A DNA stretch of 60,507 nt, filler included, from Hausera hauseri (lineage: Eukaryota), in assembly GCA_046269625.1 (NCBI GenBank). It is 12 parts of 12 records of this genome, joined end to end, with 100 filler letters (N's around TTAATTAATTAA, not from the genome) between each part and the next. Parts side by side here need not be neighbours in the genome. Positions count along the whole stretch, not along the records: positions 38,616 to 43,610 come from JBJURY010367150.1; 11 more parts are not named here. The stretch is one strand, 5' to 3'. The position numbers and the translations under genes are program-made. Shown here piece after piece: positions 1 through 43,610 of the stretch. Below the pieces are notes generated by a model. It was not told where the DNA came from, made no database searches, and saw only the letters and a list, made by a program, of their open reading frames with translations. How positions within the stretch are numbered: position 1 is the first letter of the stretch; every line of letters begins with the position of its first letter.

Positions 1-1320
1 CGATGGCAGAAGTTGATCGTGCCAAGGAAGCTGCGAAGTCCAGTCACTGTGGATGGCTTCGGTATTTGTTTGATGGTTTCTAGTCGCTCAGGAAGTGGAC
101 TGTGACTATGCGGTGTTAATGGAAGTCTGAGAAATACGGCTTCAGTTTTAAAGAATGAAAATTTGTTCATGTTCAACTGTAGGTTGTTTGCATTCAATCT
201 ATAAAACACATGTTCGAGATGCGTTTTGTGAGTCACTTCATCGGGTGATGCAATCAATATATCATCTATATATGGGATTGCGTAGGGCATGTCGATGAGG
301 ACTTAATCTATGTGGCGTTGGAATGTTTGACTTGCATACCGTAAGCCGAAAGGCATACGTAGGTATTCGAACAAACCAAAAAGCGTTATTACGGCAGTTT
401 TTGGAATGTTTTCGGTAGCTACTGGGATCTGGTAGTATGCCCTTTCCAAATCGATTATGCTGAATATTGCGGCACCATGTAGGCGATGCAATATGTCTGT
501 TACCAACGGTGTTGGGTATGAATCATGGATGGTGACGTTATTCAACATTCTGTAGTCACCACAAGGCCGGTATGATTTGTCATTTTTTGGAACCATGTGC
601 AATGGTGATGCCCACGTTTATGTGGAGCGGCGTATGATGCATGTTTCTTCGAGGTGTTGGAATTCGGCTTCCGCAGCTGCTCTCTTGACAGGGTCAATCT
701 CCATCCGGGGTTGCCGAATCGGTCGGTCACATGATATGACGAGAAAGTGTGATGTTTTCACCTCTTTCTGTGTTGGTTGTGCTGTGCGTTTCAACAGATT
801 AAGGTATTGCTTTTGCAGCAATGGAGCGATGTCACTGGGATTTGTAATTTTTATATCCGCGACAGCGTTTATAGTTAGTGACAATTCGGGTGGAGGTAGT
901 GGATTGCTCCCACCGGTGAGTTGTTGATTTCGGCAATCACTTGTGAGATCGTAGTGATCTAGGAAGTCAAAACTATGGATTTGTTGCATGACATCGGCCA
1001 ATATGAATGGCCAAGCGTATGGTCGGCCTTGGAGGTGAAATTGTAGGTACAGTGTACCTGTGGTTGATATTCGCGTGCCATTGGTAGCTTTGAGCGATGC
1101 GTGCGAGACCAGGGTAGGTCTAGCGTATACGTTAGGTTTCAACGATAAAGCTGCAACAGCGTCGATTAAAAAATCGAGTTGTTTCGAGATGTCGGAGTGT
1201 AGTGGCTCCGCCTCGAGGGTGAAAATAGCATTGACAATGCGTTCGCTATTTGCATACGGCAGTTGTGGTGATTGGGTTTCCAGTCGAAGTGACGTTGGTC
1301 GTCTGGGCCCATTTAGCTTT
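1..1320 (-). pseudogene. pol: pol of element A (protease and RT), frameshifted
   Basis: Protease and RT motifs in ORFs 618-1526 and 303-602; YIDD at about 261-272. Confidence 0.93.
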
Positions 1321-3605
1321 TTGATGGTTTGTAAAATTTGCAGCCGGGTCGACAGACTTTTGCGTCTGGATCGAAATGGTTGTGATAAATGCAAGTGTCT
1401 TGCGTTTTTATGTTTGCAGATGGCTTGTTGAATTGACAACCATGGTAACATTAATAGGCGGATTCGCCAAATCGTGTGTGGAAATGGCAAATTTTGGAAA
1501 ATTTGCCTTTCTTTCTCTTGAGACATTGGCGCCGAGATGACGGTTTGTCTCTGGCTGGCAGATTCTTGTACGTTACAAGTGTCTGCAGTGCGGCGATAAT
1601 GCTGTCCAGCTGATTTTGCTGGGTCGTCGTAACGGAGTGGATGTGTTGCGTCGGAGCGGATTCCACGGTGCCTTTAGTGCACTCGTATATTTTGTCGGCT
1701 TTTGATGCCATGTTGTCCAACGTGGCATCAAGCAGTAATGACACAAATGCTACTTGGATTTGGTTAGGCAAACTACTGAGGAAGTAGCGCCGTAGTATGT
1801 GATGGTTGGTGTGGAGGTCAAACTCAGCATTGCTCAAGTCTGAGCGTCACTTTTGCAGCAGAGCAGAAGGTTTCATATTCCCTCTCTGTCGCTTGGTGAA
1901 AACCAGGTTGAACTGATCTTGTTGGGATAGCAGGTATGCTTTGCATATGGCTGATTTGATTTTGTCGAGCGGTTCTTCATCTGACAGTAGTGTGTTTATA
2001 TCCGTTATGGCTGCGAGCGTTGTTGGCTGTATGTACTGAATTAGTGTTAAGGCCTTGTTAAATTGGCCAGTGATGCTGCATTGAGCAGCCCATGTTTCAA
2101 ACACATGGAACCACTTCAATGGAGTTCCGTCCGAACCTATGAAAAAGGTGGGACATGCTAATTTGGGTGATTTGGCATGTGTTGCTGAAGCAGTTTCTTC
2201 TTTTTTGTCAGGCGTAAGGTTGTCAACACCTCCTTTTAATCTGGGAGTGGCTAGCAGTGTTGTGTTGTGTATGGTGAAATAGTCCGAAATGGGATTATCC
2301 CATGAACGCACAATGTTTTCGTTATGTGAAAAGGTGTGGTCCGGATATGAGCTTGCGAGCTGTTGTAGCATCGCCTTTACGAACGTATTAGATTAGAAAC
2401 GATGTGCTGTCGTATTGTGTAGACCACGTACATGAAACTGGATTTCTCGCGGGATTGTTGCTTTTCCGGATTTGTGCGCCAAGTTAGCATTATTGTCGTA
2501 TATGTTGGTGGTAGTATAGTTTAGCATTTGTTCGGTATCGTTCCTATGGTTGGCGGGTCGCGTGTCATCACGTTTAGTGATGTGGGTATTTGTGGCCGGA
2601 TTGTTTTCGACGGCCGCGTTTGTCGAAATGTCAGAACCAGTATGTACGGTTCTGTGTGAAAGGGACGTGTGTGCGGTATTCGCTGCCACCATTTTAGATG
2701 TTTTCACTTTATTAGGGTTCCTAACTTTATGCAAAAACATCTTAATCGTAAAACAGTAACAAAAAATGAACGTGAAAAAACGATATAACAAGACATCATA
2801 AGAGTCACAACGTTTATTCACATCAAAGTTATTACCCACTGAATCCACCGAGGCGTATGATACGTCCGTGGAGGACAGCTCCTGGTTGGCTCGGAGGTTT
2901 CGACGTACACAAATCGGAGTGTCATCCAAACTTGAGTCAGGCAGCGATGGCTTTCTGGATATCGTATCCAATCGGAGTTTGCGACGTGTCTTTGACGGAA
3001 TCTCAGGGCTCGAAGTTCTTGGACGCGTTAGGATTAACGGGTTCTCCGAGGGGGCCACGGAATCATAAAGGCGATCGGTTGCCGCCATCAGTCTCAGGAA
3101 TACCGGCAGGAAAACCGACGAGTCGAAGAGACGTCGGTTTTCTCCGTCCTGGTAAAACCAATGAAGCGTGTTTGCCGGTAGAGAGTAAGGATCCTTTCGC
3201 TCCAGCCCGACCAAGTGTCGTACGAAGCAGCTTCTTTGCAGAAGCTCCCGTACCGTCAGAAAATCCGAGTAGGACCGGTACAGGACTTGCTTGTCTGTAT
3301 CGCGACAACGTTTTCCGCGGGAGGCGGCGTCTCGCCGGGTTGGGCATGGCTGCTCTAGCTTGATGGTTGAGCTTGGGCTGTTATCTTGGCTCTGTTTCAG
3401 CCGGTTTGGGTTGTGATCGTTTGGGAATCTGGTACCCTGACGTCAAGTTAACGACTTCATTGATTTCTGATTTGGAGGTAATTGCTGTGCCTGGTTTCCG
3501 TGTAATAGGTTCGCCGATTTTTGTCTTGGCGGTAGGTGTCGCAGAAATGATCGATTTCTCCGTCATCCGGCTCTTTCCAACTGAATTAGATTTTTCGGAC
3601 ATCAT
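1313..3605 (-). pseudogene. gag: ORF1/gag of element A: ~390-aa leader, ubiquitin-like domain, capsid-like domain and two CX2HX9CX3C knuckles
   Basis: ORFs 3605-3381 and 3347-3063 share a frame. One frameshift leads into 3214-2393, and 2371-1847 and 1837-1451 continue in that frame through single stops. The reading ends CHFHTRFGESAY*CYHGC...CIYHNHFDPDAKVCRPGCKFYKPSKS* at 1313. The leader assignment is less certain than the gag core. Confidence 0.75.
2228..2443 (-). other. Ubiquitin-like domain inside ORF1 of element A (72 codons, one in-frame stop)
   Basis: IQFHVRGLHNTTAHRF*SNTFVKAMLQQLASSYPDHTFSHNENIVRSWDNPISDYFTIHNTTLLATPRLKGG aligns end to end by eye with ubiquitin (MQIFVKTL...[22 protein letters not shown]). 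Confidence 0.75.
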
Positions 3606-3661
3606 GTACGGACGCTTTTGAATAATTCTTTTTTGTTTTGAAAAGTAATGTGCGATCTTTA

Positions 3662-3756
3662 ATCTGTGGATTTAAACAAACGGATTAAATCCACAGATCT
3701 TGATTGTTAATTAATTTTTTATTATTACAAGTGCTGGTTACTTCGGCACTTGTAAT
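3662..3756. other. Two adjacent hairpins (14-bp stem 3662-3675/3685-3698; 11-bp stem 3724-3734/3746-3756) in the putative 5' leader of element A
   Basis: ATCTGTGGATTTAA...TTAAATCCACAGAT and ATTACAAGTGC...GCACTTGTAAT are perfect inverted repeats. Confidence 0.8.
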
Positions 3757-4046
3757 CCTGATTTATTTTATGATTTAGTTTTAATATTTCAATTTATTTT
3801 GATTGAATCTGTTTTAGGAATTTGAGAAATTTTCATGTTTGGTGAATCCGTGATTTCGAATTTTGAGAAATTTAAATTTTGAGATTTTTGAATTTTAAAT
3901 TTTGATATTAGTAAAAAATTTTTTTTATTTTGCTGATTTGGTTTATCTTAAATGATCTGAATATAAATTTTAATATTTTTTAAGGTGAAACCTTATATAA
4001 ATTTTCTAAAACCATTTAAATTCCGCTTGATTTTGTAATTTTCTTC

Positions 4047-8491: not shown

Positions 8492-9582
8492 TTAAGCAAG
8501 TACTCGGCAACGTACCTGCATTGAATCATTAACAATAGCCCCACTTGTCGTTTGCAGTTGTTTGAATGATACACTCTGAATGAATCCGTCACCATAGTAA
8601 TTATCATCGACAGGTCTTTCATATGCTTTTCTTCTGTTGTCTGGATATTTCCTTTCATCGGCTGTAGCAAAACATACCTGTTGCAAAAGAACTGGTTGTC
8701 CTGTTTGTTGACTTATAATTTCTAATTGAACAGTCCTTTGCATTGGCCATGTCAATCGATCATCATTGGGACCACGCATCATCTGGAATGCCAACCAAAG
8801 ACCTTTAGATTCATTCATTCGGTAGCCCAGACGCATTTTGTATCCTTCATTAATACCATCACTAAAAAATGGATGACTCCATTCTCCGGTGTTGTTTTGA
8901 TATTTGCTTATGATTTGGTCAATACGCCATTCAAATACATTTTCCGTTGGCATTTTTGCAATCGGTTTGCTCAATAATTCTTCATGAACCTGTTCATTGC
9001 GATGTCGCGTTGTCCCAATTTCACTCATGTTGTTGTCTGACTTTTTAGCTGATATTGATCCTGTGACTTCACAACGAGATGATGACATGTTCTGAACACA
9101 ATTATTAGGACAAATTACCGATGGGTTATTTACTAATTGTTGATGCCATTCGCGGCCGTCTCCAGTAGCTTTGTCTAATGCGTCATTTGTCGGATCCTAA
9201 TTCAATTTTAATTCTGCCAGTCAACACAAATTTTCACTTGTTTCATCGTCATAGATAGTTGACATTTCTCTAAGAATTTCAATTTATCATCTTTCTCGTC
9301 CAACTGTTGATGAAGCACGGCTATTCGGCGTTCCGTGGCTTTCTGTCGAACATTAATCGTACATAAAACAAAATAAATAATTGTATGTAAACCTGCTTCT
9401 TTTCGTAATCATCCAATCGAATTTGCAACATTGTTAGCTCTGCCTAATTATATATATCATTAAACTATTTAAAAAATTGACCCTACTCGACTTCTTTGTA
9501 GATCATCAAACAGTTTTTTGTTTTGTTCCTGTATGCTCCCATTATCACCATTAAGTTTGTTAATAATGACTCGCTGTGACTC
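8492..9582 (-). CDS. Coiled-coil plus C-terminal MATH (TRAF-C) domain protein, 5' end not resolved
   Basis: Last exon has VFEWRI...WSHPFFS...GYKMRL...LWLAFQMMRGPNDDRLTWPM...IVNDSMQVRCRV. Upstream exons 9582-9487, 9443-9393, 9342-9238 and 9196-(9119) join in frame through phase-0 GT-AG introns of 43, 50 and 41 nt, plus an optional 27-nt intron. Confidence 0.88.
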
Positions 9583-14707: not shown

Positions 14708-17700
14708 CGTGTTCGAAACTGGTTATCTCCAAAATTTTTTTCGACTCAACTCATTGCGGTGAGTCCGAATATGCACGTGTTCGAAACTGGTTATCTCCAA
14801 AATTTTTTTCGACTCAACTCATTGCGGTGAGTCCGAATATGCACGTGTTCGAAACTGGTTATCTCCAAAATTTTTTTCGACTCAACTCATTGCGGTGAGT
14901 CCGAATATGCACGTGTTCGATACTGGCTGTCTCCAAAATATTTTCCGACTCAACGCATTGCGGTGAAGCCGAATATGCAGACGTCAGGAACTAGTTGTCC
15001 CCATCATTTTTTCGACTGAAGCCATTAGTGTGAGTACGAATATGCACGTGTTCGAAACTGGTTATCTCCAAAATTTTTTCCGATTCAACTCATTGCGGTG
15101 CGGCCTAATGGGCAGGTTTTCGAAACTGGCTGTCTCCAAAATTTTTTCCGACTCAACTCATTGCGGTGAAGCCGAATATGGAGACGTCCGGAACTGGTTG
15201 TCTCCAAAATATTTTCCGACTCAACTCCTTGCAATGAATCCGAATATGCGGATGTCCAAAACTGTTTGCCTCCACAATTTTACCCCACACAACTCCTTGC
15301 GGTGAAGCCGAATATGCAGATATCAGGAACTAGTTGTCCCCATCATTTTTTCGACTGAAGCCATTGGTGTGAGTCAAAATATGCACGTCTTCGAAACGGG
15401 CTGTCTCCAAATATATTTTCGACTCAACTCATTGCGGTGCGGGCTAATGGGCACGTTTTCGAAACTGGCTGTCTGCAAAATTTTTTCCGACTCAATTCAT
15501 TGCGGAGAATACGAATATGCAGATGTCCGCAACACGTTGTCTCCGTAATTTTTTTGGCTGAAGCCATTGGTGTGAGTCAGAATATGCACGTGTTCGAAAC
15601 TGGTTGTGTCCAAAAGTTTTACCGTTTCAACTCACTGTGGTACGGCCTAATTGGTCAGATTTTCGAAACTGGCTGTCTCCAAAATTTTTTCCGACTGAAC
15701 TGATTGCGTTGAATCCGAATAAGCAGGTGTCCGCAGCTGGTTGGCTCCAAAATTTTGTCGCTTCAACACATTGCTGTGAAGCCAAATACGCAGACGTCCG
15801 AAACTAGTTGTCTCCAAAATTTTTTCCGACTCAACTCATTGCGGTGAATCCGAATACGCAGATGTCCGGAACTGCTTGTCTCCAAAATTTTTTCGACTGA
15901 AGGCATTGGTGTGAGTCCGAATATCCCTGTGTTCGAAACTGGCTGTCTCCAAAATTATTTTCGACTCAATTCATTTCAGGGAGTCCGAATATGCAGCATT
16001 TCGAAACTAGCTGTCTCCAAAATTTATTTCGACTCTTCTCATTGCGCTGAACCCGAGTGTGCAGGTGTTCCAAATTGGCTGTCTCCAACATTTTATCCGA
16101 CTCAACTCATTGCCGTGAATCCGAATAAGCAGGTGTCCGTAACTGGTGGTCTCCACAATTTTATGCGACTCAACTCATTGCGGTGAGGCCGAATATGCAG
16201 GTCTTCGAAAGTAGCTCTCGCCAAAATTTTTTTCGTTTCAACCCATTGCAGTCAAGCCGAATATGCAGATGTCCGGAACTGTTTGTCTGCAAAATTTTTT
16301 CCGACCCAATTCATTGCGGTGAGTCCGAATATGCGGGTGTTCGAAACTGACTGTCTCCATAATTTTTCGAATGAAGACATTGGTGTGAGTCCGAGTATGC
16401 ACGTGTTCAAAACTGGCTGTCTCCATAATTTTTTCGGCTAAAGTCATTGGTGTGAGTCCGAATATGCACGTGTTCGAAACTGGCTGTCTCCATAATTTCT
16501 TGACTGAAGCCATTGGTGTGAGTCCGAATATGCAAGTGTTCAAAACTGGCTGTATCCAAAATTTTTTTCGACTTAACTCATTGCGGTGAATCCGAATAAG
16601 CAGGTGTACGTAACTGGTTGGCTCCAAGACTTTGTCGCTTCAACACATTGAGATAAAGCCGAATATGCAGACGTCCGGAACTGGTTGCCTCCATAAATTT
16701 ATCCGACTCCACTCATTGCGATGAATCCGAATAAGCAGGTGTCCGTAACTGGTTGTCTCCACAATTTTTTTCGACTCAACTCATTGCGGTGAATCGGAAT
16801 AAGCAGATGTCCGGAACTGGTTGCCTCCATAATTTTATCCGACTCAACTCATTGCTGTGATTCCGAATATTCAGATGTCCGGAACTGCTTGTCTCCAAAA
16901 TTTTTTCGACTGAAGGCATTGGTGTGAGTCCGAATATCCCGGTGTTCGAAACTGGCTGTTTCCAAAATTATTTTCGACTCAATTCATTTCGGTGAGTCCG
17001 AATATGCAGCTTTTCAAAACTAGCTGTCTCCAAAATTTATTTTGACTCTTGTCATTGCGCTGAACACGAGTGTGCAGGTGTTCCAAATTGGCTGTCTCCA
17101 ACATTTTATCCGACTCAACTCATTGCCGTGAATCCGAATAAGCAGGTGTCCGTAACTGGTGGTCTCCACAATTTTATGCGACTCAACTCATTGCGGTGAG
17201 GCCGAATATGCAGGTCTTCGAAAGTAGCTCTCGCCAAAATTTTTTTCGTTTCAACCCATTGCAGTCAAGCCGAATATGCAGATGTCCGGAACTGTTTGTC
17301 TGCAAAATTTTTTCCGACCCAATTCATTGCGGTGAGTCCGAATATGCGGGTGTTCGAAACTGACTGTCTCCATAATTTTTTCGACTGAAGCCATTGGTGT
17401 GAGTCCGTATATGAAGGTGTTCGAAATTAACTGTTTCCAAAATTTTTTTCGACTCAACTAATTTCGGTGAATCCGAATAAGCAGGTGTCCATAACTGGTG
17501 GTCTACACAATTTTATCCGACAAAACTCATTAAGGTACGGTCGAATATGCAGGTCTTCGAAACGTGCTCTCTTCAAAATTATTTCCGTTTCAACCCATTG
17601 CAGTGAAGCCGAATACGCAGGTGTTCGGAACTGGTTGTCTCCAAAATTTTATCCGACTCAACTCATTGCGGTGAATCCGAATATGCAAATATCCGGAATT

Positions 17701-19875
17701 TGTGGCCTCCATAATTTTATCCGATTTAACTCCTTGCGGTGAATGCGAATATGCAGATGTACGAAACTGGTTGTCTCCATAATTTTTTCGACTGAAGCCA
17801 TTGGTCTGAGTCCGTATATGAAGGTGTTTGAAACTGGCTGTCTCCAAAATATTTTCCGACTCAACTCATTGCACTGAGCCCGTATATACAGGCGTTTCAA
17901 ACTAACTGTCTCCAACATTTTATCCGACTCAACTCATTGCGGTGAATCCGTATAAGCAGGTGTCCATAACTGGTGGTCTCCACAATTTTATCCGACTCAA
18001 CTCATTGCGGTGAATCCGAATATGCAGATGTCCGGAACTGTTTGTCTCCAAAATTTTTTCCAACTCAACTCATTGCGGTGAATCCGAATATACATATGTC
18101 CGGATCTGGTTGTCTACAAATATTTTTCGACTCAACTAATTGCGGTGAATCCGAATAAGCAGGTGTCCATAGCTGTTGGCCTACACAATTTTATCCGACA
18201 AAACTCATTGAGGTAAGGGCGAATATGCAGGTCTTCCAAACGTGTTCTCTCCAAAATTATTTCCGTTTCAACCCATTGCAGTGAAGCCGAATATGCAGAT
18301 GTCCGGAACTGTTTGTCTCCAAAATTTTTTCCGACCCAACTCATTGCGGTGAGTCCGAATATGCAGGTGTCCATAACTGGTGGTCTCCACAATTTTATCC
18401 GACTAAACTCATTGCGGTGAGGCCGAATATGCAGGTCTTTGAAACTATCTCTCTCCAAAATTTTTTTTATTTAAACCCATTGCAGTGAAACCAAATATGC
18501 AGATGTCCGGAACTGTTTGTCTCCAGAATTTTTTCAGACCCAAATCATTGCGGTGAGTACGACTATGCGGGTGTTCGAAACTGGCTGTCTCCATAATTTT
18601 TCAGACTGAAGCCATTGTGGTGAGCCGAATATGCAGGTGTTCGAAACGTGCTCTCTCCAAAATTTTTTTCGACTCAACTCATTGAGGTGTGGCCTAATTG
18701 GACAGGTGTTCGGAAATGGCTCTGTACAAAATTTTTTCCGACTCAACTCATTGCGGTGAATCCGAATATACAGATGTCCGGATCTGGTTGTCTACAAATA
18801 TTTTTCGACTCAACTAATTGCGGTAAATCCGAATAAGCAGGTGTCCATGACTGGTGGTCTCCACAATTTTATCCGACTAAATTCATTGCGGTGAGTCCGA
18901 ATAAGCAGGTGTCCATGACTGGTGGTCTCCACAATTTTATCCGACTAAACTCATTGCGGTGAGGGCGAATATGAAGGTTTTCGAAACGTGCTCTCTCCAA
19001 ATTTTTTTTCCTTTTCAACCCATTGCAGTGAAGCCAAATATGCAGATGTCCGGAACTGTTTGCCTCCAAAATTTTTTCCGACTCAACTCACTGCGGTGAA
19101 TCCGAATATGCAGATGTCCGGAACTGTTTGTCTCCAAAATTTTTTCCAACTCAACACATTGCGGTGAATCCGAAATACGCAGGTGTTCAAAACTGGCTGT
19201 CTTCAAAATTTATTTCGACTCAACTCATTTCGGTGAGTACGAATATGCAGGTGTTTGAAAGTGGCTGTCTCCGAAATTTATTTCAACTCAACTCATTGCG
19301 CTGAGCCAGTATATGCAGGCGTTCCAAACTGGCTGTCTCCAACATCTTATCCGACTCAACTTTTTGCGGTGAATCCGAATAAGCAGGTGTCCATGACTGG
19401 TGGTCTCCACAATTTTATACGACTAAATTCACTGCGGTGAGGCCGAATATGCAGGTATTCGAAACGTGCTCTCTCAAAAATTTATTGCGTTTCAACCCAT
19501 TGCAGTGAAGCCAAATATGCAGATGTCCGGAAATGTTTGTCTCTAAAATTTTTTCCGACTCAACTCACTGCGGTGAATCCGAATATGCAGATGTCCGGAA
19601 CTGTTTGTCTGCAAAATTTTTTCCAACTCAACTCATTGCGGTGAATCCGAATATACAGATATCCGGATCTGGTTGTCTACAAATATTTTTCGACTCAACT
19701 AATTGCGGTGAATCCGAATAAGCAGGTGTCCATAACTGGTGGCCTACACAATTTTATCCGACAAAACTTATTGAGGTAAGGGCGAATTTGCAGGTCTACC
19801 AAACGTGTTCTCTCCAAAATTATTTCCGTTTCAACCCATTGCAGTGAAGCCGAATATGCAGATGTCCGGAACTGT
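14708..19875. repeat. Tandem satellite, ~68-bp monomer, ~76 copies, fills the whole contig
   Basis: Unit CGTGTTCGAAACTGGTTATCTCCAAAATTTTTTTCGACTCAACTCATTGCGGTGAGTCCGAATATGCA recurs at 14708, 14776, 14844 and onward, with diverged variants and higher-order duplications. Confidence 0.97.
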
Positions 19876-20191: not shown

Positions 20192-20272
20192 TGTGGCGCC
20201 TACGCCGTCGGCTATGCTGCCCGAAGATAATCTGGTCGGAAACCTGGGCGCGTCCGTGATCCGTGCGCCACA
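20192..20272 (+). repeat. Putative 81-bp 5' LTR of element B
   Basis: GC-rich block bounded by TGTGGCGC...GCGCCACA. An unrelated ORF runs up to its left edge and the gag ATG follows 2 nt after its right edge. The partner LTR is not in the contig. Confidence 0.65.
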
Positions 20273-20274
20273 AT

Positions 20275-21470
20275 ATGCCTCTGGCATCACTCTTTAACCC
20301 CTTTCTTTTTTGTTTTTAAAAATAACACACATATTTCTACCATACACACTAGTAACATGGACCTTGCTTACACCCTCTGTATGTCTCTATCCTCTTTCTT
20401 ACACACTTCCGACATTTATTTTTCGCACCATGGTTTTGTGCTACAGCCGTCTGATTCACTTTCTTCCTTCGCTTCTCTAATCATTTATGTCTCCCTTTAC
20501 TTTCACATCCGGGGTGGTTCGGACCCTGATCCTTCTGCTGAAAATTCGGCCAAAAAAGATCTGGTCATTGCCCTGCTGACTGCACAATCTGCTTCTCCTA
20601 ACCTTTCTCGCACAGACTTCTTCCTCGATAAAACTAATTCAAGCCGCACTTGGCTACAATTTCATTTACAATGGCTTAAAGCCAATCAAATTACCGATTC
20701 TTGAGCGCCAAAAGCTTGTTACTTCTTCTCCCAGCAAATATCAAGCATAAAATCAATAATCTTGCTGATGTTCTTACTTCTCCAACATCATATGACATGC
20801 TTTACAAGTCTGTTCTTCATATTACCGATCCATCGATTGATAATATAATACAGAAGTACTTTAACGAACATGCTATAGGCAATCAAAAGCCTTCTGACTT
20901 TCTGCAGACCTCTGTTTCACACCTAAGTGCGCTTGGCGTTACCCCCACCAACAATGCGGACTTGATTCGTCGTTATTTCCTCTCCCCCTTACCCATTTCC
21001 ACCAGAGCTCTCCTTACTGTAGTTAACAACTCGACGGCGATTGAAAAACATGCCCTATTGGCTGATAAAAGTTTCGAAATCTTGCAAACTAACAACTCAC
21101 AACCCGTAGCTGCAGCAACGACGCATACCTCATCTCACATAGACATGACTGTTTTCGCACAGCAACTACAATTCATTCAGAAACAATACGATACTCTACA
21201 ACATTCAATTTCCGCCATCACGGCCCAACTAAATAATCTGTCTATGTCTCGGCGAGGTGAGACTCGTGCATCGCGTGAGCGTAGCCTCTCCAGGCACTCA
21301 TTTCGTTGTAAATCTCCTGGCGGACGAATGATTTGTTTTTATCACGAGATTTTTCGTAAAAGCGCAGAAAAATGTCTCTTGGGTTGTAGATTTTACGACG
21401 AGCGTTTTTTTCTCATCCTCCTTCTTCTTATCAGTCATCTTCTTTTCCTCCACAATTTTAAAAAAACTAA
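20275..21470 (+). pseudogene. gag: gag of element B with N-terminal ubiquitin-like domain (to 20518)
   Basis: ATG 20275 with a frameshift in a T-run, then FVFKNNTHISTIHTSNMDLAYTLCMSLSSFLHTSDIYFSHHGFVLQPSDSLSSFASLIIYVSLYFHIRGG, then capsid-like region (...YDML...IGNQKPSDFL...LIRRYFLSPLP) and CHCC knuckle. Confidence 0.8.
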
Positions 21471-21502
21471 AAAGGCCGCCAGATGCTACGGCACATTCTG
21501 GC
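21461..21502 (+). promoter_or_regulatory. Candidate -1 ribosomal frameshift signal at the gag-pol junction
   Basis: Slippery heptamer AAAAAAC directly followed by TAA, then a stem GCCAGATG...CATTCTGGC. Element A has AAAAAGC-TAA at the equivalent gag end. Confidence 0.55.
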
Positions 21503-24408
21503 ATTGGCAATACTGCTCAGTCTTCTGGCCGTCTTAACACCGCCTCCGCAGTTTTTCTGTTAAAAGCTATACTGTTCTCTAGAAATGCTCCACGTATCGA
21601 TTTCCTCATCGATTCAGGAGCTGCCTTTTCACTCCTCTTTTTGTTCTTCGTCTCTACATCAACGGCAGTTTCTTCTCCACCGCTTTTCACTGCCAGTGAT
21701 TAACCTTTGAGAATCGCAGGTACCACGGAACTGGTTTTTACATTTTCAAACTTACCAGGCTAGTTTGTCTGGAAATTCCACGTGGCCAATATTAAATCGC
21801 CAATAATCGGCTCAGATTTTTTGGCCGCACACCACCTGCTAGTTGACTGTAAGTATGGCTGTTTGCTACGTAGAGACACCGTCGTGAACGTTAACAATTG
21901 ACTAACACACAGCTCAACAGGCCAATCGTCTGCGAACTCACACGTGAATTTGGCAAATTGCTCGTCGGTTGATAACGATGTATTTAGTAGTTTATCTATT
22001 TTCTTAATTACAACTCAAATATCAAAGTCGATTTTAAAACAGTCGGTTAAACCGAATATTGACGGCGTTGACGTCGTTCATTCTTCGCCAATCACTGTCA
22101 CCGCCTCCTCTAATAATACGCCTCAATCATTTTTATCACTAGATTCCAATCTCAAATCCTACATTATTTCTTCTTGTTTTCGCATACTCAAAAAGGACTC
22201 TAGTTTTAAGCCACCATCAACAACTTATCACCACATTGTCACCCAACACCAAAAACCTATCAGACAAAAGGTGAGACCATTATCGCATCGTAGACGAAAA
22301 GCCGTGGAATTAGAGTTTAACGAACTCGAAAAATCTGGTATCATTCGGAGGTCCAAATCACCATGGGCTTCACCATTGCATGTAGTAGCACAAAAGGACG
22401 GTACTTTTCGACCATGTGGCGACTACCGTCAAGTAAACAATCTAACCATCATGGATGCTTACCCATTACAGCTCATAAAATACATCCTGCACAGTCTTAA
22501 CAACACCAATACGTATTACACAATAGATCTGCGTAAAGCCTACGATCAAATTCCCGTTGCACCCGATGACATTCCAAAGACTGCTGTAATCACTCTATTT
22601 GTCCTTTACGAATACATCTTTATGCCATTCGGTTTACGTAATGCAGCCCAAACTTTTCAACGCCACATCGACACCGTTTTTTCAGGCCTTGATTTTGATC
22701 ATCCTTATATCGATGACATATTAGTTGACTCCAATTCCATGAAACAACACCATGAATATCTCCAAATTATTTTTCACAGATTACATCATAGGAACTTACA
22801 AGTTAACGTCTCCAAGTGCAACTTCTTTCGGAAACGTGTCAATTTCTTAGGCCACATCATCACTACTCACGGCCACTCTCCACAACCTAATCGACTACAG
22901 CAATTGAAAAATGTAATATTACGAACGACTACTACAGATATAAGAAGTTTTCTTGGCACACTACATTTCGTTTACAAATACATACCGCATTGGTCTGAGC
23001 TTACAGCACCTTTCGCACACCTCTCATCTGGAAAGAAAAGACAGTTAGTCCAATGGACTCCCGATTTAATCATCAAATTCGATCACTTACATGAAGGCCT
23101 AAAAACCGTCGAAATACTGGCTATTCAAAACTCGACGCGGAGCTAATACTTACCACCGATGCCTCTACCACAGCTACTGGTGCAATACTACACCAGATTT
23201 CCAACGGTGTCGATGAACCTTTGGAATTTTAATCTCGAAAACTCACACAACCAAAAAGCCGGTATTCAACATTTGATCGTGAGCTATTAGCCATAGTTCT
23301 GGCAGTAAAACATTTTAAGCATCTTCTCCACTCTCGTCCATTTATCATCCAAACGGATCACAAGCCTCTGCAGCACATAATGTCACTAAAACAGCCATCA
23401 CCGAGGCAGAAACGACAGATATAGTACCTATCTACATTTAGTTTTGTCATAAAATATATTTCGAGTGCTGAGAATTTGGTCGTGGATTTCCTGTCGCGGT
23501 GGATCTGCTTAATTACGACTGAACCAATATTTTCTACCGAAATTCTAAAGCTTAATTAGCCGTCTGCTGATATTCTTAACTCTTTCAAATCCTTCGAAAT
23601 CATTGATGGCACTGCATGCGATACATCTAACACCGGTAAAAAAATCATTCTCGCTCCTTCTTTACAGAAACTAGCTTTCCTTCACACGCATTCACTTCAT
23701 CATCCAGGTTCAAAAGCCACGTTTCGCTTGCTCCAACGTCATACAGTTTGGCCATCAATGCGCACAGATGTACAGAATTGGGTTAATAAATGCGTCGCCT
23801 GTCAAAAATACATCTTAAACCGCCGCTTTACCATTTCCCATGTACATCACTTTTTCATACCGTCCATCTTGATCTCGTTGGACCCTTGCCTTTTGATAAC
23901 GGGTACCAACATATTCTCACTATGATGGATCGTGCTTATGGCTGGCCTGAAGCCGCTCCTCTCCGCTCAACAAACACTGATTCAGTAGCAGATGCCTTCA
24001 TTAAAATCTGAATCAGTCGTTTTGGATCCCCACGGTACATCATAACGGACCAAGGTCCGCAGTTTGAATCAGAACTCTTTAAATCGCTTGATAAACGCTT
24101 GGGGATATCACATTTCCATACAACACCGTATCATCCACAATCAAATGGCCTTCTTGAAAGGTTCCATCGAACAATGAAACTTTCTGTAAAAATTTTGGCA
24201 GACAATCATCGCAATTGGACGTCCATCCTACCGTTTGTTCTATTCGGGTGGCGCAACACTCCTTCCACCACCACGGGTTATGCTCCAGCCGAGGCACTTT
24301 TAAAACTCCAATACGGGCTCTGTTCGAACTTTCCGACCTCGACGAAAATTCGACAGACGAAAACATTCGCGCGGCACAGTCTCACTTTGTTGAGTTCAGC
24401 TCAGACTC
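21471..24408 (+). pseudogene. pol: pol of element B (PR-RT-RH-INT)
   Basis: ORFs 21944-23146, 23728-24011 and 24099 onward, plus intervening stop-interrupted frames. Confidence 0.95.
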
Positions 24409-34323: not shown

Positions 34324-36209
34324 TAGGCAAACGATATAGAGGTGCGTTTATCTTTGAATTTTCTGCACATGGATTACGTAACAACCGCATAATCCTAGCT
34401 ATTGCCTTAATTCTTTTTGGTTTTGCGGTTCCATGCAATCTGATATTTTATTTAGTAATGATTTATCCGGTCTCGATCTTCTTTCTCCAACTATATGGCC
34501 AAGGTAGGATATAGCATTCTGAACCAATTTGCATTTCCTTGGATTTAATTTCAATCCGGCTTGTTCCAGACGCATTAGCGTGTGTGCAATATCCTTTAAG
34601 TGTTCCTCGTCGGTTTTTGACGCTATCATTACGTCGTCTAAGTACGCAAAAGAGTGATCCAATCCCATTAACATTTTATTCATCATCCTTGTAAATATGG
34701 CTGGCCCGGTAGTAATCCCAAACGGCATGACGTTGAATTCATATACACCATTGTATGTCTTAAATGCTGTCTTATATCGGTCTTCATCTTCAATTTCCAC
34801 TTGGCGATATCTGCATTGTAAGTCCAGAGTAGTAAACTATTTTGCTCCTGAGAGTCTATTTAAGGCTTCTTTTACTGATGGCAATGGGAAAGAGTCTTTC
34901 ATCATAAGATTGTTTAGAGCCCTGTAATAAATAAAAAATCGATGTATTGTGGTACCTTTCTTCTTAACCATGAGGATTGGCGAATACCATGATCTGTAGC
35001 TGGGTCTGATTATATCGGCCTTAAGCATTCGTGCGACTTCCTTTGTTATCTCAGGTCTTAACGAATGTGGCGGAGGATACCATTTCGGCATCTTTTGATC
35101 CTCAGGGTCTATTTCTTCATTCGAACCTGGCTTTTTCTTTAGAGGGATAATTAACTTTAGTGCTTTCGCTCTACCAATATCTTTGTCGTCTTTAGCGACG
35201 ATTGATTTATAATGACACAACAATTCGTAAAATCGACAATAAGACTCGGGGGAAAACTTAGTTTCGACATGCGGTGGAAATTCAGCATACTTGTAAGGCT
35301 TCTCTTTAATAGTTATCGACGACACTCTATACGTATCTCCCAGAGTAGTATAAGCATGGAGTTTAATGGGGATCGGTGTATTGTTAGCTATTCTAATTGG
35401 CACACAACCGGAGTGTACTCTTGTCAGTATGTTACTACGTATTATATTTGGATTTAATGTTTCTCTTGGTTCAAAATATACTGGTTGATCGTCATCTTGC
35501 TGAATTTGGGCGTAAATTATTAACTCTGTCCTCGGTGGAATATCCTTATCTACTAGTATCCACATCTCTCCAAATTTTTTATCCTTGGCATTTTTCACGC
35601 CTTTATTTGGTCTGATTTCTATCAATTTTCCTGTTTGCAAGTCAATTGCTATATTCGGTAGTCTTTTCAGTAGGTCACATCCTAAAACTATGTCGTCAGT
35701 TAATTGTTCCATAATTGCATATTCATGATGGAAAAACTGTCCAATTATTCGAACTTCTGGATTCCATTTAAACATGGGTTTTGACATTTGGCCAAAAGCT
35801 CCCGTANNNNNNNNNNTTTTGCGGACGGTGGGTATAATTTTCCTCTCAGCGTTTTAGGAATTGAGACGTTTTTTATGTAAGACATCTCGGATCTTGTATC
35901 GATTAATGCGTAAACTTCCCAATTTTCAATAATGATTTTGGCGAAGCGTTTTCCTTCTATTACTGTACCCAAGCATTTCAATGTATCCTTTGAACGTTTT
36001 ACTGCCGATATTTTATGTCCACTGATTCGGATCTCGGGGGAGGATATCACGTTCTCCGATAATTGTCTCAATTCTTCATTTGGATATAATTCGTTGTTTT
36101 CTATATGGAACTCTGCTGTCTCGTGTGTACTAACTAATGGTTCTCGATTATTAGTATGCAATTCGTCATTTTGAAATGTTTTCAGCCTTGGATTGTCCCA
36201 TGCCGCTGC
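34324..36209 (-). pseudogene. pol: Ty3/gypsy pol 5' part (protease, spacer, RT), element D
   Basis: YALIDTRSEMSYI and DIVLGCDLL (aspartic protease); SWYSPILMVKKK, YRALN, KDSFPLP, KTAFKT...YEFNVMPFG, AYLDDVMI (RT). Confidence 0.93.
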
Positions 36210-36358
36210 CTAATCTCTATGTTTTTAGGCTCTCTTGGAGAATATAGCATCTTGGGCCCGTCTGTAGATTGTCGGTAGCACATTTGCCGTAGGATCCCGT
36301 ATAGTTTCGTTCCTTCATAAGGGTTTTCTATATTAATTGTTCTTTTATAAACTTCTGT

Positions 36359-38511
36359 CTAATATGAACTCATTGATTGTTTGCCACAGTCGTCATAAGT
36401 TGGAGCGGTAGGAGGTAACATAGGTAGTGGTGCTTTAATAACAGAATACACTTTATATCTATTTATTCCTGAAAGTACTTCTCCTCCCTTAGGCTCGTCA
36501 TCGTCTGAATCATTTCTTCGCGTTTTATACTTTGTAATTTTCCGCTTCTGCAAAAATATAGGTCTTCTTCTTCGTTTACCATTGTAATATCCGACATGCT
36601 GTTCTACCTCTGATTTCCATCTGTTTCCTTCGTATGCCTTTAAGAATTTTTAAAGGGTGTTATGATCGCAGTCAGTATCTTGCAAGAAAATCCAGTCAAC
36701 GTAAATATTTCATACCCATTACTTACGGCTTGGATGACTGCTTTGATCATTTGTATCAAAAAATATATCACTAAAAACCCGGATGCCGCTTGTCCGAAAA
36801 TTAAGAATCTTCCCCAAATTTTGTAGAGTATTTCCACGGTTGCTCGCTGGTAGTGATTTACGCCAAGTAAAGATTCCCATTTAGCGATGTATTGTGTATA
36901 ATCTACTACAGAAGCCATAGCTCGATTTAACTCATGTGTTCGCTGTCGTGGAAAGGCCAGAAATTGTCTAATAGTCTCAACTCCTTTGATCTATATATAC
37001 CTTTCGATGAGGTATCTTGAAATTTACCGTCCGTAATTCCCTTACCGAGATTTGGCCCTGTCAATTTATTTGGAGCGGCAATAATACCTCCATTGGGCGG
37101 ACTGACCCAGTCTGTGTCACTACGTCTAAACATGGGTTCTCCTAAGCACGCTTTACAATTTTTAAGGATAGTTGGTTGAGTAGCGTTACCCAGTAACACT
37201 TTTGTCAGCGGTGTCGCTAATCTTGAAATATTTTGGTAAATAAATGGAAGTTTCTGAATGCAACTTTTTTCTTCCACGTTGATGGGTAAGTCTGTTTTTT
37301 CGCATTCATAGGTTAGCAATACTTCGCCTGTAACCTGACCTAAAATTCCTTCTTTCATGGGAATTATCGGAGAAGCCAGTTCTGGGTTTGCATATATTAG
37401 AGGCATTTTCGTTCTGATGATTTCGGTATCTTATTTGCCGTCATTCATTATCATTTTGTGATATAATTCCCTTATTCCAACTTGTCCTTTATAGTAGAAG
37501 TAATCATCTCTATTTTTTAGGTAATCCTCGATAGGTACATCCTGTGTTTCTAGCTTAAACGTTTTTGTACTTATTTCCATTCCTGCTACGAAAAACGCCT
37601 CATAGTTTGTAGCAAACATTACTACATCGCAGCGAGAAATCATCTCTTTTTTTATAAATTTCAATCCATGCTGATCCGAAATTAATATAGTAGGTGTAGA
37701 ATGTGCTGATACATCCTCTGGTGTCCTTGAATTGGTCTCTGATTTGTCCACATATCGTTTCCCTGTAGTCTCATTGAACTTTAGTTCTTTAATTTTAATA
37801 AAATTACAATTTTTTCCAGAGGGAGGTTCCCATATTATAACCGAACTTCTAAAGGTACAGGTCCCGTCTTGTAAATGACATTTTTGATTCTCTGTATACA
37901 GTTTGGTGACACTATGGAACATTACCTTCTGTGATCGCATTTCTGATTCGTAAAAATCCACAACTACTACGTTTGCATCCAATCCTTTCCCGGTGTCGTA
38001 TTCTGCTCCATTACAATGTCCGCTGTGCATATCCAGTCTTCCGGCCACTATTTTGTATGCCCTGATTATTTTACCTTGCTGCATCTCTAATTGCATACTA
38101 CCCGTTATATTCTTCCAGATTCCTTGGCTTGCTTGCAGTGTTGGCGTTCTAAATTCATTGGAATTAATGAAGTCGTTGGTTTAATTATAGATGAGTGTCC
38201 ATGAACCAACCCACAGTGAAAAATGCTACCTGATCGCCTCAGAATACATTCCATTCCATCGAGCGATATCAATTCTTGTTGCTGATACAGGAAATAATTT
38301 TTCTCTTTTGCTTCTAACTTGTGTGGTCTGGCATGTCACATATTTCTAGATCCATTAGGGAATATCTCTGTCCTAGTTTAAACTTATCTCAATCGTAGAC
38401 AGTTACAGCGCTTATATACATAACTAGCATCATTAAGGTGAGTAGGCTAATTAGCAAATTTGATTCATTTTTCCGGCATATAATATCTGCTGTTGTTAAA
38501 TTACGTAACAT
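36359..38511 (-). pseudogene. env: Chuvirus-type (Jingchuvirales-like, class III gB-related) fusion glycoprotein / env, full length but decayed
   Basis: Signal-like LLISLLTLMMLVMYISA, then VTVYD*(C)...YSLMDLEIC, ECILRRSGSIFHCG..HGHSS, CHLQDGTC..IIW, GQVTGEVLLTYEC, CIQKLPF..N..LATPLTKVL, SKGIY, TM region FLIFGQAASGFLVIYFLIQMIKAVIQAVSNGYEIFTLTGFS, and a basic tail. This motif order matches chuviral G as I know it. Confidence 0.85.
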
Positions 38512-38615
38512 ATCGNNNNNNNNNNNNNNNNNNNNNNNNNNNNNNNNNNNNNNNNNNNNTTAATTAATTAANNNNNNNNNNNNNNNNNNNNNNNNNNNNN
38601 NNNNNNNNNNNNNNN

Positions 38616-41600
38616 AAATCCAATCAATCTATCAACTTCCTTATTGACCCAGGGGCTGCTGTTTCTTTGTTACACCATTCATCCAAAACCATCCATTTCA
38701 CTATTTAATACCAAATTGCATAAAGCTAACGGCCAAGAATTACCCATTTTTGGTAGGTCTAAGATCTCATTCACTTTACCAGCATTCCCTGACAGTTTCA
38801 ATTGGACTTTCATTGTTGCGGACGCAATCTCCAATACTTGGGTCTGATTTTTTATCTTTCTACAACCTCCTTGTAGATAGTAGACAACGTCAAATCATTA
38901 AAAACAGTTCAACAAAGCCGACCTCTACAAATAACCAACCAACCATGCAACCTATCTTGACTATAAAATCAATATTAAAGAAAGCATCAACCAATGTGAA
39001 TAAAAACCTAATAAATATCAATGTAAACAATCCTACGTTTCTGTTGAAGTCTAATTTATGCGGCCCGATTTTTACAGTTTCTTACACTAAGTCCATTCAA
39101 GCCACTGCTGTGACAAAAATAGCCTTTACTATGCTTGGCCAAAAAATGCAACAATATTTAACCAAGTCGTATTTTCATACAATATAAAAAGACCCAACAT
39201 TTCCACCGGTCAACACGGCATTTCATCATATCAACACAGAAAATCGTATGCCCCTTAGGCAGTCCAAGCGGAATTCTCTGCACTCGAGCAAGCTGACGTA
39301 ATAAAACGCTTAAAATCACCGTGGGCATCACTACTCCACGTCATTCCAAAAAGTTGGCACATTCCGTCCATGCGGCGATTATCGCCAACTTAATAACGTC
39401 ACTACGATGGATGCTTATCCTATACCTTTGATTAAGGATATATTACATTTTTTACACAAAACCACAATTTATTCGACTATAGATCTCAAAAAAGCCTACC
39501 ACCAAATACCGATAGTACCCGAAGACATAAAAAAACGGCCATAATAACACCTTTTGGTCTTCTCGAATAGGCATTCATATCCATCCGTTTAAAGAATGCA
39601 GCACAAACTTTTCAGCGATGCATTAATTCAGTCCTTTCAGGTTTGCCACTTGTACATCCGTACATTGATGATATACTAGTGGCATCGACATCACCCAAAC
39701 AACACGAAGAACATCTTGGACTGGTTTTCCAACGCTTACACAATTGCAATTTGCAAATTAACTTTTCTAAGTGTTCCTTCTTTCAAAAAAGGTTAATTTC
39801 CTTGGCCACGTCATCACACCTGATGGTCAAAGCCCACAACCTGATAGGATTCACCAACTACGAAATATCAAGCTACCAAAAACTACAACTGGCATGCGTA
39901 TTTTCCTCGTGACTTTACATTTTGTTCATAAATACGTCCCACACTGTAGCTAGTTAACTGCTCCTTTCGCTCAACTAGGAGCAGGGACGAAGAACAAACT
40001 TATATATTGGACGCCAGAATTTGTAAACCAGTTTGATGAACTTCGCGACAAGCTTAAAACAGTTGAAATCTTAGCTTACCCAAAACTCGATGCCTACTTC
40101 ATCTTAACAACCGATGCATCAACCACAGCCGTAGGAGTGGTTCTTCATCAAATATCTTAAGGTATAAATAAGCCACTAGAATTCTTTTTACGTAAGCTTC
40201 AGCCACAAGAACGCCGTTATTCCAACTTCGATAGAGAACTTCTGGCCATCGTCTTAGCTCTTAAACATTTTTCACACTTACTGATCGCTCAATCCTTCAG
40301 CATTCAAACGGACCACAAACCTCTCTTTCACGTAATGAACATGAAACAACCATCACTCCGACAAGAACGCCATATCTCATATCTGTCAACATTTAACTTC
40401 AAAATTTGCCATATTTCTGGCACAGACAATTTAATAGCTGATTTCCTATCACGGTCAGTTGGAGCAATTAGCGTCACACCAATTTTCTCAAAGGACCAGT
40501 TAATCCAAAATCCGCCTTCCAATGAAATTCTGAAACAATAAAAATCAGTAAAAATCATCGATGGAATAGCCATGGATACTTCGACACCTGGACATTTGCC
40601 AAGTTTGGCTCCTCCTCTCCAACAAACTGCATTTCAACATGTCCATTCTTTGCATCACCCAGGTTCCAAGGCTACATTCCGCCTTCTCAAACGCCACGTA
40701 ACATGGCCATCAATGAGATCTGATGTACAGAGCTGGGTTAGGCAATGTGTAGCTTGCCAAAAGTTCAAAGTAGCTAAATATCTTAAACCACCATTATTCC
40801 ATTTTCAATGTACATTCCGCTTTGAGTCAGTTCACATAGATATTGTTGGCCCATTACTATCCGATAACGGCCACAAATTCATCTTAGCAAAGATAGACCG
40901 CGCGTCTTGTTGGCCGGAAGCCATTTATTTTCACTCCATCAATATAGACTCCATTGCAACGCATTTATTAGGATTTGGATTAGCCGGTTCGGTACACCTC
41001 GCTATATAATTTTAGACCAAGGTCCTGAATTTGAATAGAACCTATTCAAATCTTTAGTTAATCGATTAGGCATAAATCACATAGACACAATTCCATATCA
41101 TTTCCAGTCGAACTGCTTATTAGAACGCTTTCATCGTACTCTCAAGATCTCATTAAAAATCCTGGCCGAAACTCATAAGAATGAGTGGCGCAATACGCCG
41201 TCTACTAGCACCGGTTGCGCATCCGCTGAAGCACTTTTCGGTACCACAATTTGCACACTTTTTGAACTCACCGATTTGGACAACACACCAACTGACGAAA
41301 CAATTAAGTCTGCACAAAATCACTTCGTTCAGCTAAGCTAGGATTCTTTCTGCAAAATAGTACATGAAGACAAAACATACTTACATGACTCACTATACAA
41401 TGCAAAGTTCGTGTGGTTAAAAAACCATTCACCCTCCGGTTTCCAACCAAACTGCTTAGGAAAATTTAAAGTCCTCAACGTTACCTCACACATAGTTACG
41501 ATATTAAAAAATGATAAGGAACAAAACGTTCACATAACTAACGTGAAACCTGTATTTTTTGTTTTTGATACACCAGACTGTTCAGCTGAGCTTTCAAAAA

Positions 41601-41988
41601 CCTTTCTCGACTCCTTCAATTCTTCCTCTGTTCTACTTCCACGACAATCTGCTACTTTAAGACCTGCATCAACTCAATACACTACACTAAATGACATACC
41701 GGCCAGTTCTCAAGCTGCTGACATGTCCAATCAAAACCTAACTTCATCTCAATCATATCAATAAACAATTAAATAGCACGTTAAGCAAAGCAAGACGGTT
41801 ACCTTTAGCAAATACAGTACAGAAAAAAATACGGATAAAATTTAACGTCTTGTCCATACAAAGACCCATCAGTTCGCTTACACTGTTGTCTCTTTATTTT
41901 TTCCTTTCTACATTTTTATCTTCTTACAGCGTCTTTTTCGTAATGGGAGGGGGAGTAGTGTGGTGCCGCGGGCTCGGGTGCCTCCACA
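38616..41988 (+). mobile_element. pol: Ty3/gypsy LTR retrotransposon, CsRN1/Kabuki-like lineage (element C): decayed pol, PPT and 3' LTR
   Basis: NFLIDPGAAVSL, LHKANG, SPWAS, RPCGDYR, HPYIDDIL, TDAS, FDRELLAI, HHPGSKAT...CVAC, HIDIVGP, LERFHRTLK. Collinear with element B. Confidence 0.95.
41945..41988 (+). repeat. Polypurine tract (41945-41958) and putative 30-bp 3' LTR (41959-41988)
   Basis: GGGAGGGGGAGTAG followed by TGTGGTGCCGCGGGCTCGGGTGCCTCCACA; ends resemble those of the element B LTR. Confidence 0.65.
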
Positions 41989-42713
41989 ATTCAACTTGCT
42001 GATTTACAGACATTTGCCCTAGAAGACGGTTTCCTTCTAAGTCATCAATTGTCATTTCGTTAAAATTCCGCGACACTTAAAATTAGCAGATATTTGAAAT
42101 TGATTAAAGTTAATATTTCAAGTATAACGATCGAATAGACAAAAAATAGCATAGGTAGAGTGCCGGTGAAATTTACTGAAAGGTTCGACATTCAAGCAGA
42201 ACTGAAATTTCTCAAATCGATAATACTTCCTACTGAAGCCCGGGATCTTTTTTTGGTCGTGGCATACATCTGCCGAGATCTCATGCGACGAATAAATGAA
42301 AGTTCGAAAACCAAACTGCTGGCTCATCAAAGAAAAAGGAAAACTCTTTTCTCCTGGAAACGCCTAGGAGATTTCAACGTACAACAAGTGTCAGAAATTA
42401 TGAAAACAAACAAATTGTATTAGACGTATTTTGATTTGATGATTTGGTTGATCAGAAACAAATTTTGTTCACTTGTCAATATAAAGAAAACATGAATCAA
42501 TCAAAACCTCATGTTACGGAAATAATCAATCAAATCGATCAAATAATAACACCAGTTGTTCAATCAATCCTAAAGACCGATTTAAATCATTGGCCTACAA
42601 CCAATCCCATTGATGTTATAGTCCGAAATATCGTTGTGGAATTGCAAACAGACTTCAACGAAATGAAATTTAATTTTCGTTTACAGGAATTCTTCCAAGA
42701 TTTGCCAATATAA
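41989..42713 (+). pseudogene. Decayed ORFan interrupted at its 5' side by element C
   Basis: The frame of ORF 42160-42423 extends back to 41989 with only two stops (IQLADLQTFALEDGFLL...) and continues into 42444-42713; AATAAA follows at about 42756. Confidence 0.5.
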
Positions 42714-43214
42714 AGACAACGTCAACGTTTTGTTTTCAATGGTTAGTTTGAACAATAATAAAATACAAAATCAATAACCGTTCATTCATTACTGTTTGTG
42801 AATCATAAAGTCCAGATAACGCAACTGGAGATTTAAATGTGACAGCTTTTCTCAATTGTTCTCACTTGTATAAACGATTTATAGAAGTTTCTATACCTCT
42901 ATCAGATGCCAGTATTTTCAATGATCTGATGTTATTTTTTATCATGTATGTTCTACAAACAAATATCAATGCCCAATAAGCTGAATTATTAATTTACATT
43001 TTGTGTAAGGTGTGTGAGTTATCAGAAACAATAAGTTATAAAAAATTGATTATTGTTATTGAAGTTTTTGATTTGAATTTTGAAAAAAATAATAAATCTT
43101 ATTATCGTTGTGATTAGCCTTTCGTGGTTTTATAATATGTATATCGTAACTGAGACTGATTTGGAATTTTATATCTCCGTTATGTACATACATAACAATA
43201 ACGCATAATCATAA

Positions 43215-43610
43215 CATGCTGTCTCAGCAGGATCAGAAAAGGTAATAAAATACATTGACAGTAACTATGACATGGACAACCTACGAGAAGCACTCCAGAG
43301 AGTTTTTCGACATTGCGAAGCTTGTCAGCGAAGCAAAGCCTTGACAACGAGCACAAAGGAAGAAACAGTGAACCTATCAGCAAAAGAGCCATTCGAGAAA
43401 GTATACATAGATACATGTGAACCAATAAAGGAGACATGGAGAAAAAAGGTACATTTTAGCAATAATAGATCAGTACAGTAGATACCTAAGCCTAATTGCT
43501 ATACCGAGGCAAGATGGAGCAACCGTCAATGCAGAAACAGAAAAGAAATGGATCCTCAAATACGGAGCACTAAAAGAAATACATACAGACTGCAGGAAAG
43601 CATTTGAGAC
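43215..43610 (+). pseudogene. Ty3/gypsy integrase fragment (Zn-binding region and start of catalytic core)
   Basis: AGSEKV...CEACQRSK...EPFEKVYID, then YILAIIDQYSRY...WILKYGALKEIHTD. Confidence 0.88.

Follow-up and report, generated by a model that had tools for sequence, protein, structure and literature searches.

A 30-nucleotide block with both integrase ends as a candidate complete 3′ LTR of a CsRN1-related Ty3/gypsy element in Hausera hauseri

Introduction

In the textbook view, long terminal repeats (LTRs) are U3-R-U5 units in which a promoter, a poly(A) signal and the integrase ends are combined. A retroelement locus of Hausera hauseri raises the question of whether a block of 30 nt that follows a polypurine tract (PPT) can be a complete 3′ LTR, and whether such a length is native to its family. 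The locus lies in the window, that is, the whole stretch of 60,507 nucleotides (filler included) that was analysed, which consists of 12 unrelated pieces of the assembly GCA_046269625.1 linked by N44-TTAATTAATTAA-N44; the block sits in the piece 38616-43610 (JBJURY010367150.1). The original prediction, made from the sequence, placed a PPT and a 30-nt GC-rich TGTGG...CCACA block at 41945-41988, coordinates that proved correct, and interpreted the block as an LTR reduced to its att ends. Our analysis supports a 3′ LTR that has att ends and contains neither a promoter nor a poly(A) signal, whereas a native length of 30 bp is only favoured, since no 5′ LTR, target-site duplication (TSD) or full-length copy of the family was found in the window or in the metagenome and viral scans.

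Results

Organization of the element body

The piece opens within a decayed pol (Table 1) that matches Pfam RVT_1, RT_RNaseH and Integrase_H2C2, and its domains are arranged in the PR-RT-RNase H-IN order of Ty3/gypsy elements. A tblastn search with two intact relatives, P0001 and P0002, whose genes lie on contigs of 7.6 and 5.2 kb, respectively, revealed 52-68% identity over RNase H-IN, and the alignment extends along the window pol. The pol is interrupted by stops, frameshifts and two deletions of 30-36 nt, located near 39261 and 41182; these two deletions within 3.3 kb are visible in the protein alignment as well as in the reads, and on their account this copy is prone to deletions. The 5′ end of the element is lost at the contig start 38616, with its own gag outside the contig. 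Given that the last residues of P0001 and P0002 map to the C-terminal motif, the pol ends 72 nt upstream of the PPT, at the expected site of a 3′ LTR. The observed order is thus pol end, 72-nt untranslated region (UTR), PPT and att-bounded block, after which the repeat stops.

Table 1. Positions of the features discussed, counted along the window.
Feature	Position	Strand	Basis
Decayed Ty3/gypsy pol (protease, RT, RNase H, integrase)	38616..41872	+	Pfam, tblastn
C-terminal motif RLVHTKTH, true pol end	41846..41869	+	match to last residues of P0001 and P0002
3′ UTR, 72 nt, T/C-rich, no plus-strand AATAAA	41873..41944	+	sequence, signal scan
PPT GGGAGGGGGAGTAG, CsRN1-type GGGGGAG plus 3 nt	41945..41958	+	13/14 purines; pattern as in relatives
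Candidate complete 3′ LTR, 30 nt, GC-rich	41959..41988	+	att motifs, GC change-point, depth fall, read joint
5′ integrase att end TGTGGTG	41959..41965	+	7/7 to CsRN1 TGTGGYG (PMC3601003, Table 3, available part); start of L057 identical
3′ integrase att end CTCCACA	41982..41988	+	6/7 to CsRN1 MSYYAMA (PMC3601003, Table 3, available part)
Predicted right-hand 4-bp TSD ATTC	41989..41992	+	inferred from 8/14 relatives and the available part of PMC2582038
Low-copy flank, not element: short frames 42139-42420 and 42435-42710	42139..42710	+	depth
Sibling candidate 5′ LTR, 81 nt, 64% GC, 8-bp perfect inverted ends	20192..20272	+	att 7/7 and 7/7
Sibling gag (CHCC motif) and pol	20680..24408	+	64% nucleotide identity to pol of the 38616 element

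The polypurine tract and the 30-nt block

As in other Ty3/gypsy elements, the PPT lies directly upstream of a 3′ LTR with TG...CA termini. The PPTs of curated relatives abut TGT likewise, with paired LTRs in the examples L073, L053, L064 and L031. Both 7-nt termini of the block, including the CTCCACA end, are identical to those of L057, a relative with a TSD-flanked LTR of 205 bp. The block has a GC content of 73%, compared to 35% and 36% in the two flanking 100-nt segments, and falls within the part of the 4995-nt contig that is richest in GC. A change-point analysis of GC placed the best break at 41985 (2-log-unit range 41978-41988), where it coincides with CCACA. When windows were simulated from a first-order Markov model fitted to the contig, 2.6% of 665 had CCACA no more than 25 nt from TGTGG.

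A signal scan revealed neither AATAAA nor an AT-rich promoter stretch inside the block, the nearest AATAAA being at 41760 within pol, and TATA and AATAAA are absent from both this block and the 81-nt block of a sibling element described below. The animal Metaviridae LTR model, as given in the available part of PMC3601003, has AATAAA and an AT-rich promoter stretch inside the LTR. A special RNA fold was rejected (z of 0.10 for the 30-nt block, and -0.79), as the block folds no better than shuffles, and neither the 30-nt nor the 81-nt block matched tRNA, 5S or other Rfam families above chance. The window contains no second copy of the 30-nt block and no solo LTR. Altogether, these sequence features support the assignment of 41959-41988 as a 3′ LTR with both att ends, from a CsRN1-related lineage.

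Read evidence and the boundary at 41988

Two runs, X1 and X2, contain part of the stretch, with word shares of 0.37 and 0.05, respectively. From 41789 on, the mean depth by bin drops from 2753 to 679, 68 and 33 in X1, and from 30.8 to 10.2 and 0 in X2. This fall is equivalent to a repeat ending near 41993 / 42010, and the depth is near background after about 41990-42010; the depths are summed contig means and uneven (196-350 in X1 at 41882-41913), so that the arithmetic is rough and does not separate the whole 30-nt block from its first half.

Among the joints listed, one X1 contig (depth 8.25) connects 41865 with 41950 over 84 non-alignable nucleotides; neither side has fewer than 41 letters, and the shorter one has 41. 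To the right of 41950 the joint must therefore extend to 41990 or beyond, across the whole block; should the right side be the shorter one, it stops at 41990, which is the LTR end plus 2. The whole block is thus covered by a contig with a non-alignable 3′ UTR, which appears to favour a 30-bp LTR shared between copies. This contig could be an allele of the 38616-43610 locus. X1 covers 30 of the 30 bins, and among the pieces listed none spans the junction; no copy with a longer LTR was found among the X1 rows listed.

The 41988 boundary had been argued from a reading frame running from 41989 into an ORF at 42160-42713. This argument failed, because the frame from 41989 hits stops at 42061 and 42136, the frame of the GTG at 42160 stops at 42421, and 42435-42710 is another frame. 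Nevertheless, the same boundary is backed by composition and read depth. Sharing among copies past 41988, which the original prediction had named as evidence against itself, is absent beyond about 20 nt, according to a rough depth estimate.

The flank at 42139-42710 has an X1 depth of 33-284 compared to thousands in pol, and yielded no Pfam match. Within it, 42181-42275 (+) matches one unnamed protein of 94 aa (P0124) across a frameshift with an E-value of 3.9e-6, and may be a low-copy element or a gene remnant. Atlas matches to 42435-42710 score 0.80 or lower and are a lead at best. At 43215-43610 (+), the piece also carries an integrase fragment of another gypsy family with a very high depth of 200,000-285,000 in X1.

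Lineage placement and search for further copies

We built a quick, midpoint-rooted tree of RNase H-IN with 38 rows, 8 of 46 candidates having been dropped by a length filter, and without a named CsRn1 reference. The window copy, its sibling, P0001 and P0002 group together with a support of 100, and P0004 joins them at 96. This group is sister to, and outside, the elements with a tRNA-Trp primer-binding site (PBS), with a support of 97 and an SH-aLRT of 99 for the joint branch. As judged from this tree (support of 96-100), the 38616 element belongs to a divergent, long-branched lineage that is related to CsRN1.

The CsRN1 clade (CsRn1, PwRn1, Kabuki, Boudicca and AgCR1-14) shares with the window lineage the PR-RT-RH-IN order, the CHCC motif, the att motifs and the PPT form. 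According to the available part of PMC2582038, a CHCC Gag motif, a Trp PBS and a 4-bp TSD are hallmarks of CsRN1. The CHCC motif (CX2HX9CX3C) was found once in the sibling gag, but twice each in the lineage proteins P0122 and P0123; moreover, the sibling has no tRNA-Trp PBS, and we therefore file the element as CsRN1-related rather than as a core member. P0123 itself contains an N-terminal part matching Pfam PF19089 that is fused to the lineage gag; it looks chimeric, probably owing to mis-assembly.

A metagenome scan for copies of the family retained one locus from 262 pattern matches, which has an identity of 32% and is not the family. Viral pattern scans returned 16 and 8 loci, none with the pol of the 38616 element, and the GTDB and viral protein scans returned 53 and 5 loci that are distant relatives only. 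A gag search for an LTR read through in mis-called proteins gave two matches, neither with an LTR-derived N-terminus, and a frame across the 30-nt LTR was found in none of 12 candidate proteins.

LTR lengths in relatives and other short-LTR elements

Screening of 58 distant loci yielded 14 curated relatives with a 5′ LTR, a Trp PBS and a PPT, four of which are copies of one family. Their LTRs are about 86-620 bp long; an exact 4-bp TSD is present in 8 of the 14, and AATAAA is absent in five. Among the screened loci, L022-L074 are animal-type CsRN1 retrotransposons in many contigs of bacterial or archaeal bins, some at full length with TSDs; these contigs are likely host contamination of the bins. 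Published LTRs of the clade, as far as the sources were available, measure 146-407 bp in AgCR elements and 381 bp in PwRn1 (PMC2582038), and 174 and 302 bp in pufferfish CsRN1 elements. By contrast, the two window elements have 30 and 81 nt.

The original prediction had compared the block with the short LTRs of Mag. A length of 77 bp is attributed to the Bombyx Mag LTR; the literature search yielded no source for it. The Mag clade likewise consists of animal Ty3/gypsy elements with short LTRs, but its att motifs differ from those of the 30-nt block, and the window pol groups with CsRN1-type elements; its closest kin is CsRN1-like rather than Mag. In the sources as partly available, Culex Mag LTRs are 119-304 bp long with mostly 5-bp TSDs and a Ser/Leu PBS, and the att motifs are TGTTRKR for Mag A and TGTNATRT for Mag C (PMC3601003).

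Very short terminal repeats are also found in SMART/FRetro129 and in TRIMs such as Helenus and Ajax. However, these are non-autonomous and non-coding, whereas the 38616 element has a full, though decayed, pol. The accessible account of FRetro129 (a SMART) describes a non-autonomous element with an 85-bp LTR that keeps a TATA box but has no poly(A) signal, and that of Helenus and Ajax reports tRNA or 5S sequence. Assignment to TRIMp3 (Helenus/Ajax/Cassandra) was rejected on account of the coding interior and an LTR without tRNA- or 5S-derived sequence. In the parts of the literature searched, which lie outside Repbase, GyDB, subscription journals and supplements (the LTR training list of PMC3601003 among them), no LTR below 85 bp is documented. 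The 30-nt block looks to be about a third of the shortest LTRs documented in this comparison.

The sibling and other elements of the window

The 81-nt block of the sibling arose in 5 of 20,000 simulations and lies 85 nt upstream of a possible gag ATG. Having neither a preceding PPT nor a TSD, it is best read as a 5′ LTR. No match to a tRNA-Trp PBS within three mismatches follows 20272. In place of that PBS, the block at 20192-20272 has next to it a small hairpin (ATGCC-TCT-GGCAT) along with a leader rich in T. Only one end of each of the two elements, this sibling and the 38616 element, falls within the window. At 81 nt, this candidate LTR is below every LTR length documented for the curated relatives and in the publications consulted. 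From this candidate, the lineage appears to run short in LTR length. Derivation of the 30-mer from the 81-mer by a visible deletion was also considered and rejected, as the interiors do not align (1110 of 2000 shuffles score equally), a comparison that is uninformative at 64% identity.

A more distant related element in the piece 1-4046 has a PBS-like site TGGTGGCAGCG, which we take to be of the tRNA-Leu type, with AATAAA 20 nt upstream (2691 (-) and 2713 (-)). Primer use appears to vary within the lineage, judging from this element. The same piece contains at 3665-3695 a 31-nt AT-rich hairpin within TGTGG...CCACA, with perfect arms of 11 bp and flanks of 4 nt that nearly match (GATC and GATT, read on the minus strand); it is either a palindrome or a tiny solo-LTR-like unit, near the 30-mer in length but with an unlike interior.

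Retrotransposon remnants occur in several pieces of the window and a TRAF/MATH domain in one, which points to an animal assembly. At 34324-38515 (-), a gypsy-like element possesses an extra frame that matches the Monjiviricetes fusion glycoprotein family PF24664 with an E-value of 2.9e-7; this frame precedes the protease and RT of the element and shares their strand. In addition, a 68-bp satellite array with a higher-order spacing near 1013-1017 bp occupies 14708-19875, and a frame with a TRAF/meprin MATH domain (E-value of 1.2e-12) lies at 8495-9196 (-).

Discussion

On balance we lean towards the reading that 41959-41988 is a complete 3′ LTR, and that about 30 bp is the native length in a subfamily of CsRN1-related Ty3/gypsy elements. 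The reading draws on a PPT-LTR junction that matches those of relatives with proven paired LTRs, on att motifs of 7/7 and 6/7 with the same termini in L057, and on the X1 joint together with the short-LTR sibling, while the GC change at about 41985 and the depth fall make both ends look real. Several observations count against a native 30 bp: all 14 curated relatives have LTRs of at least 86 bp, the joint is a single X1 contig, the copy has two pol deletions, the sibling 81-mer has no recognisable PBS and an interior unlike that of the 30-mer, and the distant element of piece 1-4046 keeps AATAAA 20 nt before its PBS-like site.

How could such an LTR work? From general LTR biology, the PPT would prime plus-strand DNA, and the 7-10 nt at each end of the block would serve as integrase att sites, with the intervening 10-16 nt available as R for minus-strand transfer. 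The available part of PMC3601003 gives R lengths of 10 (Sire), 11 (MMTV) and 21 (RSV) nt and places integrase specificity in the terminal 8-15 bp, which makes a 30-bp LTR geometrically feasible. Since neither TATA nor AATAAA can be placed within or close to the block, transcription would have to be initiated at a downstream internal promoter or come from host read-through, and the 3′ end would have to be formed by non-canonical or downstream signals; in the case of read-through, all 30 nt could function as R. We tentatively propose, with slightly less than even confidence, an autonomous CsRN1-related gypsy subfamily with identical 30-bp LTRs, each composed of two integrase ends and a 10-16-nt repeat, which would rely on external signals and perhaps on a non-Trp primer.

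Alternatively, the family LTR may be longer (about 80 bp or more) and its interior deleted from this copy after insertion with the att ends kept, an unlikely course that nevertheless deserves serious attention. Such a loss could be promoted by pairing between the inverted ends, the same copy has lost 30-36 nt of pol twice, and the lengths elsewhere are greater, with 81 nt in the sibling, 86 bp in the shortest relative, and 146-407 and 174-302 bp in published CsRN1 elements. However, at about two deletions per 3.3 kb we estimate that sparing both ends of an 80-bp LTR would be a few-percent event, and the at least 41 letters of the X1 joint that align from 41950 would not be obtained from a copy with a longer LTR.

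Reverse transcription copies the 3′ U3 into both LTRs. A master element that had lost part of its 3′ LTR could thus have passed this deletion to both ends of its progeny, giving a self-inactivating derivative of an active family with longer LTRs. Such progeny cannot transcribe themselves, and both the shared 30-mer and the missing promoter and poly(A) signal would be accounted for; we still regard this course as distinctly improbable, as the non-alignable 3′ UTR of the sharing contig suggests a different master and the X1 rows listed include no longer-LTR copy.

Truncation of the LTR by a deletion or insertion, with CCACA as a chance end, is compatible with the simulated frequency of CCACA near TGTGG and with the imperfect 3′ att match, but the shift in GC, the joint in the reads and the drop in depth agree on one place and L057 has the same 7-nt end, making it very unlikely. 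A processed (LINE-mobilised) mRNA copy or an assembly artefact is hardly credible, even though RetroTector, in its partly available description, regards chains whose LTRs are very short as potential processed pseudogenes and the window is built of short concatenated contigs, because no poly(A) follows 41988, the U5 att end is present, and X1 provides cover in every bin, albeit with no junction-spanning piece among those listed.

If the block results from a one-off deletion, the locus is an ordinary decayed copy. If a 30-bp LTR is native, elements of this kind would be invisible to LTR finders with a 100-bp minimum, a typical setting that is used in the pipeline of PMC8220671, and the available part of PMC11117352 states that short-LTR elements may have been missed. 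Moreover, a native 30-bp LTR would show that nothing beyond the att ends and a short R is required in cis, and this minimal LTR would provide a natural minimal system for strand-transfer tests.
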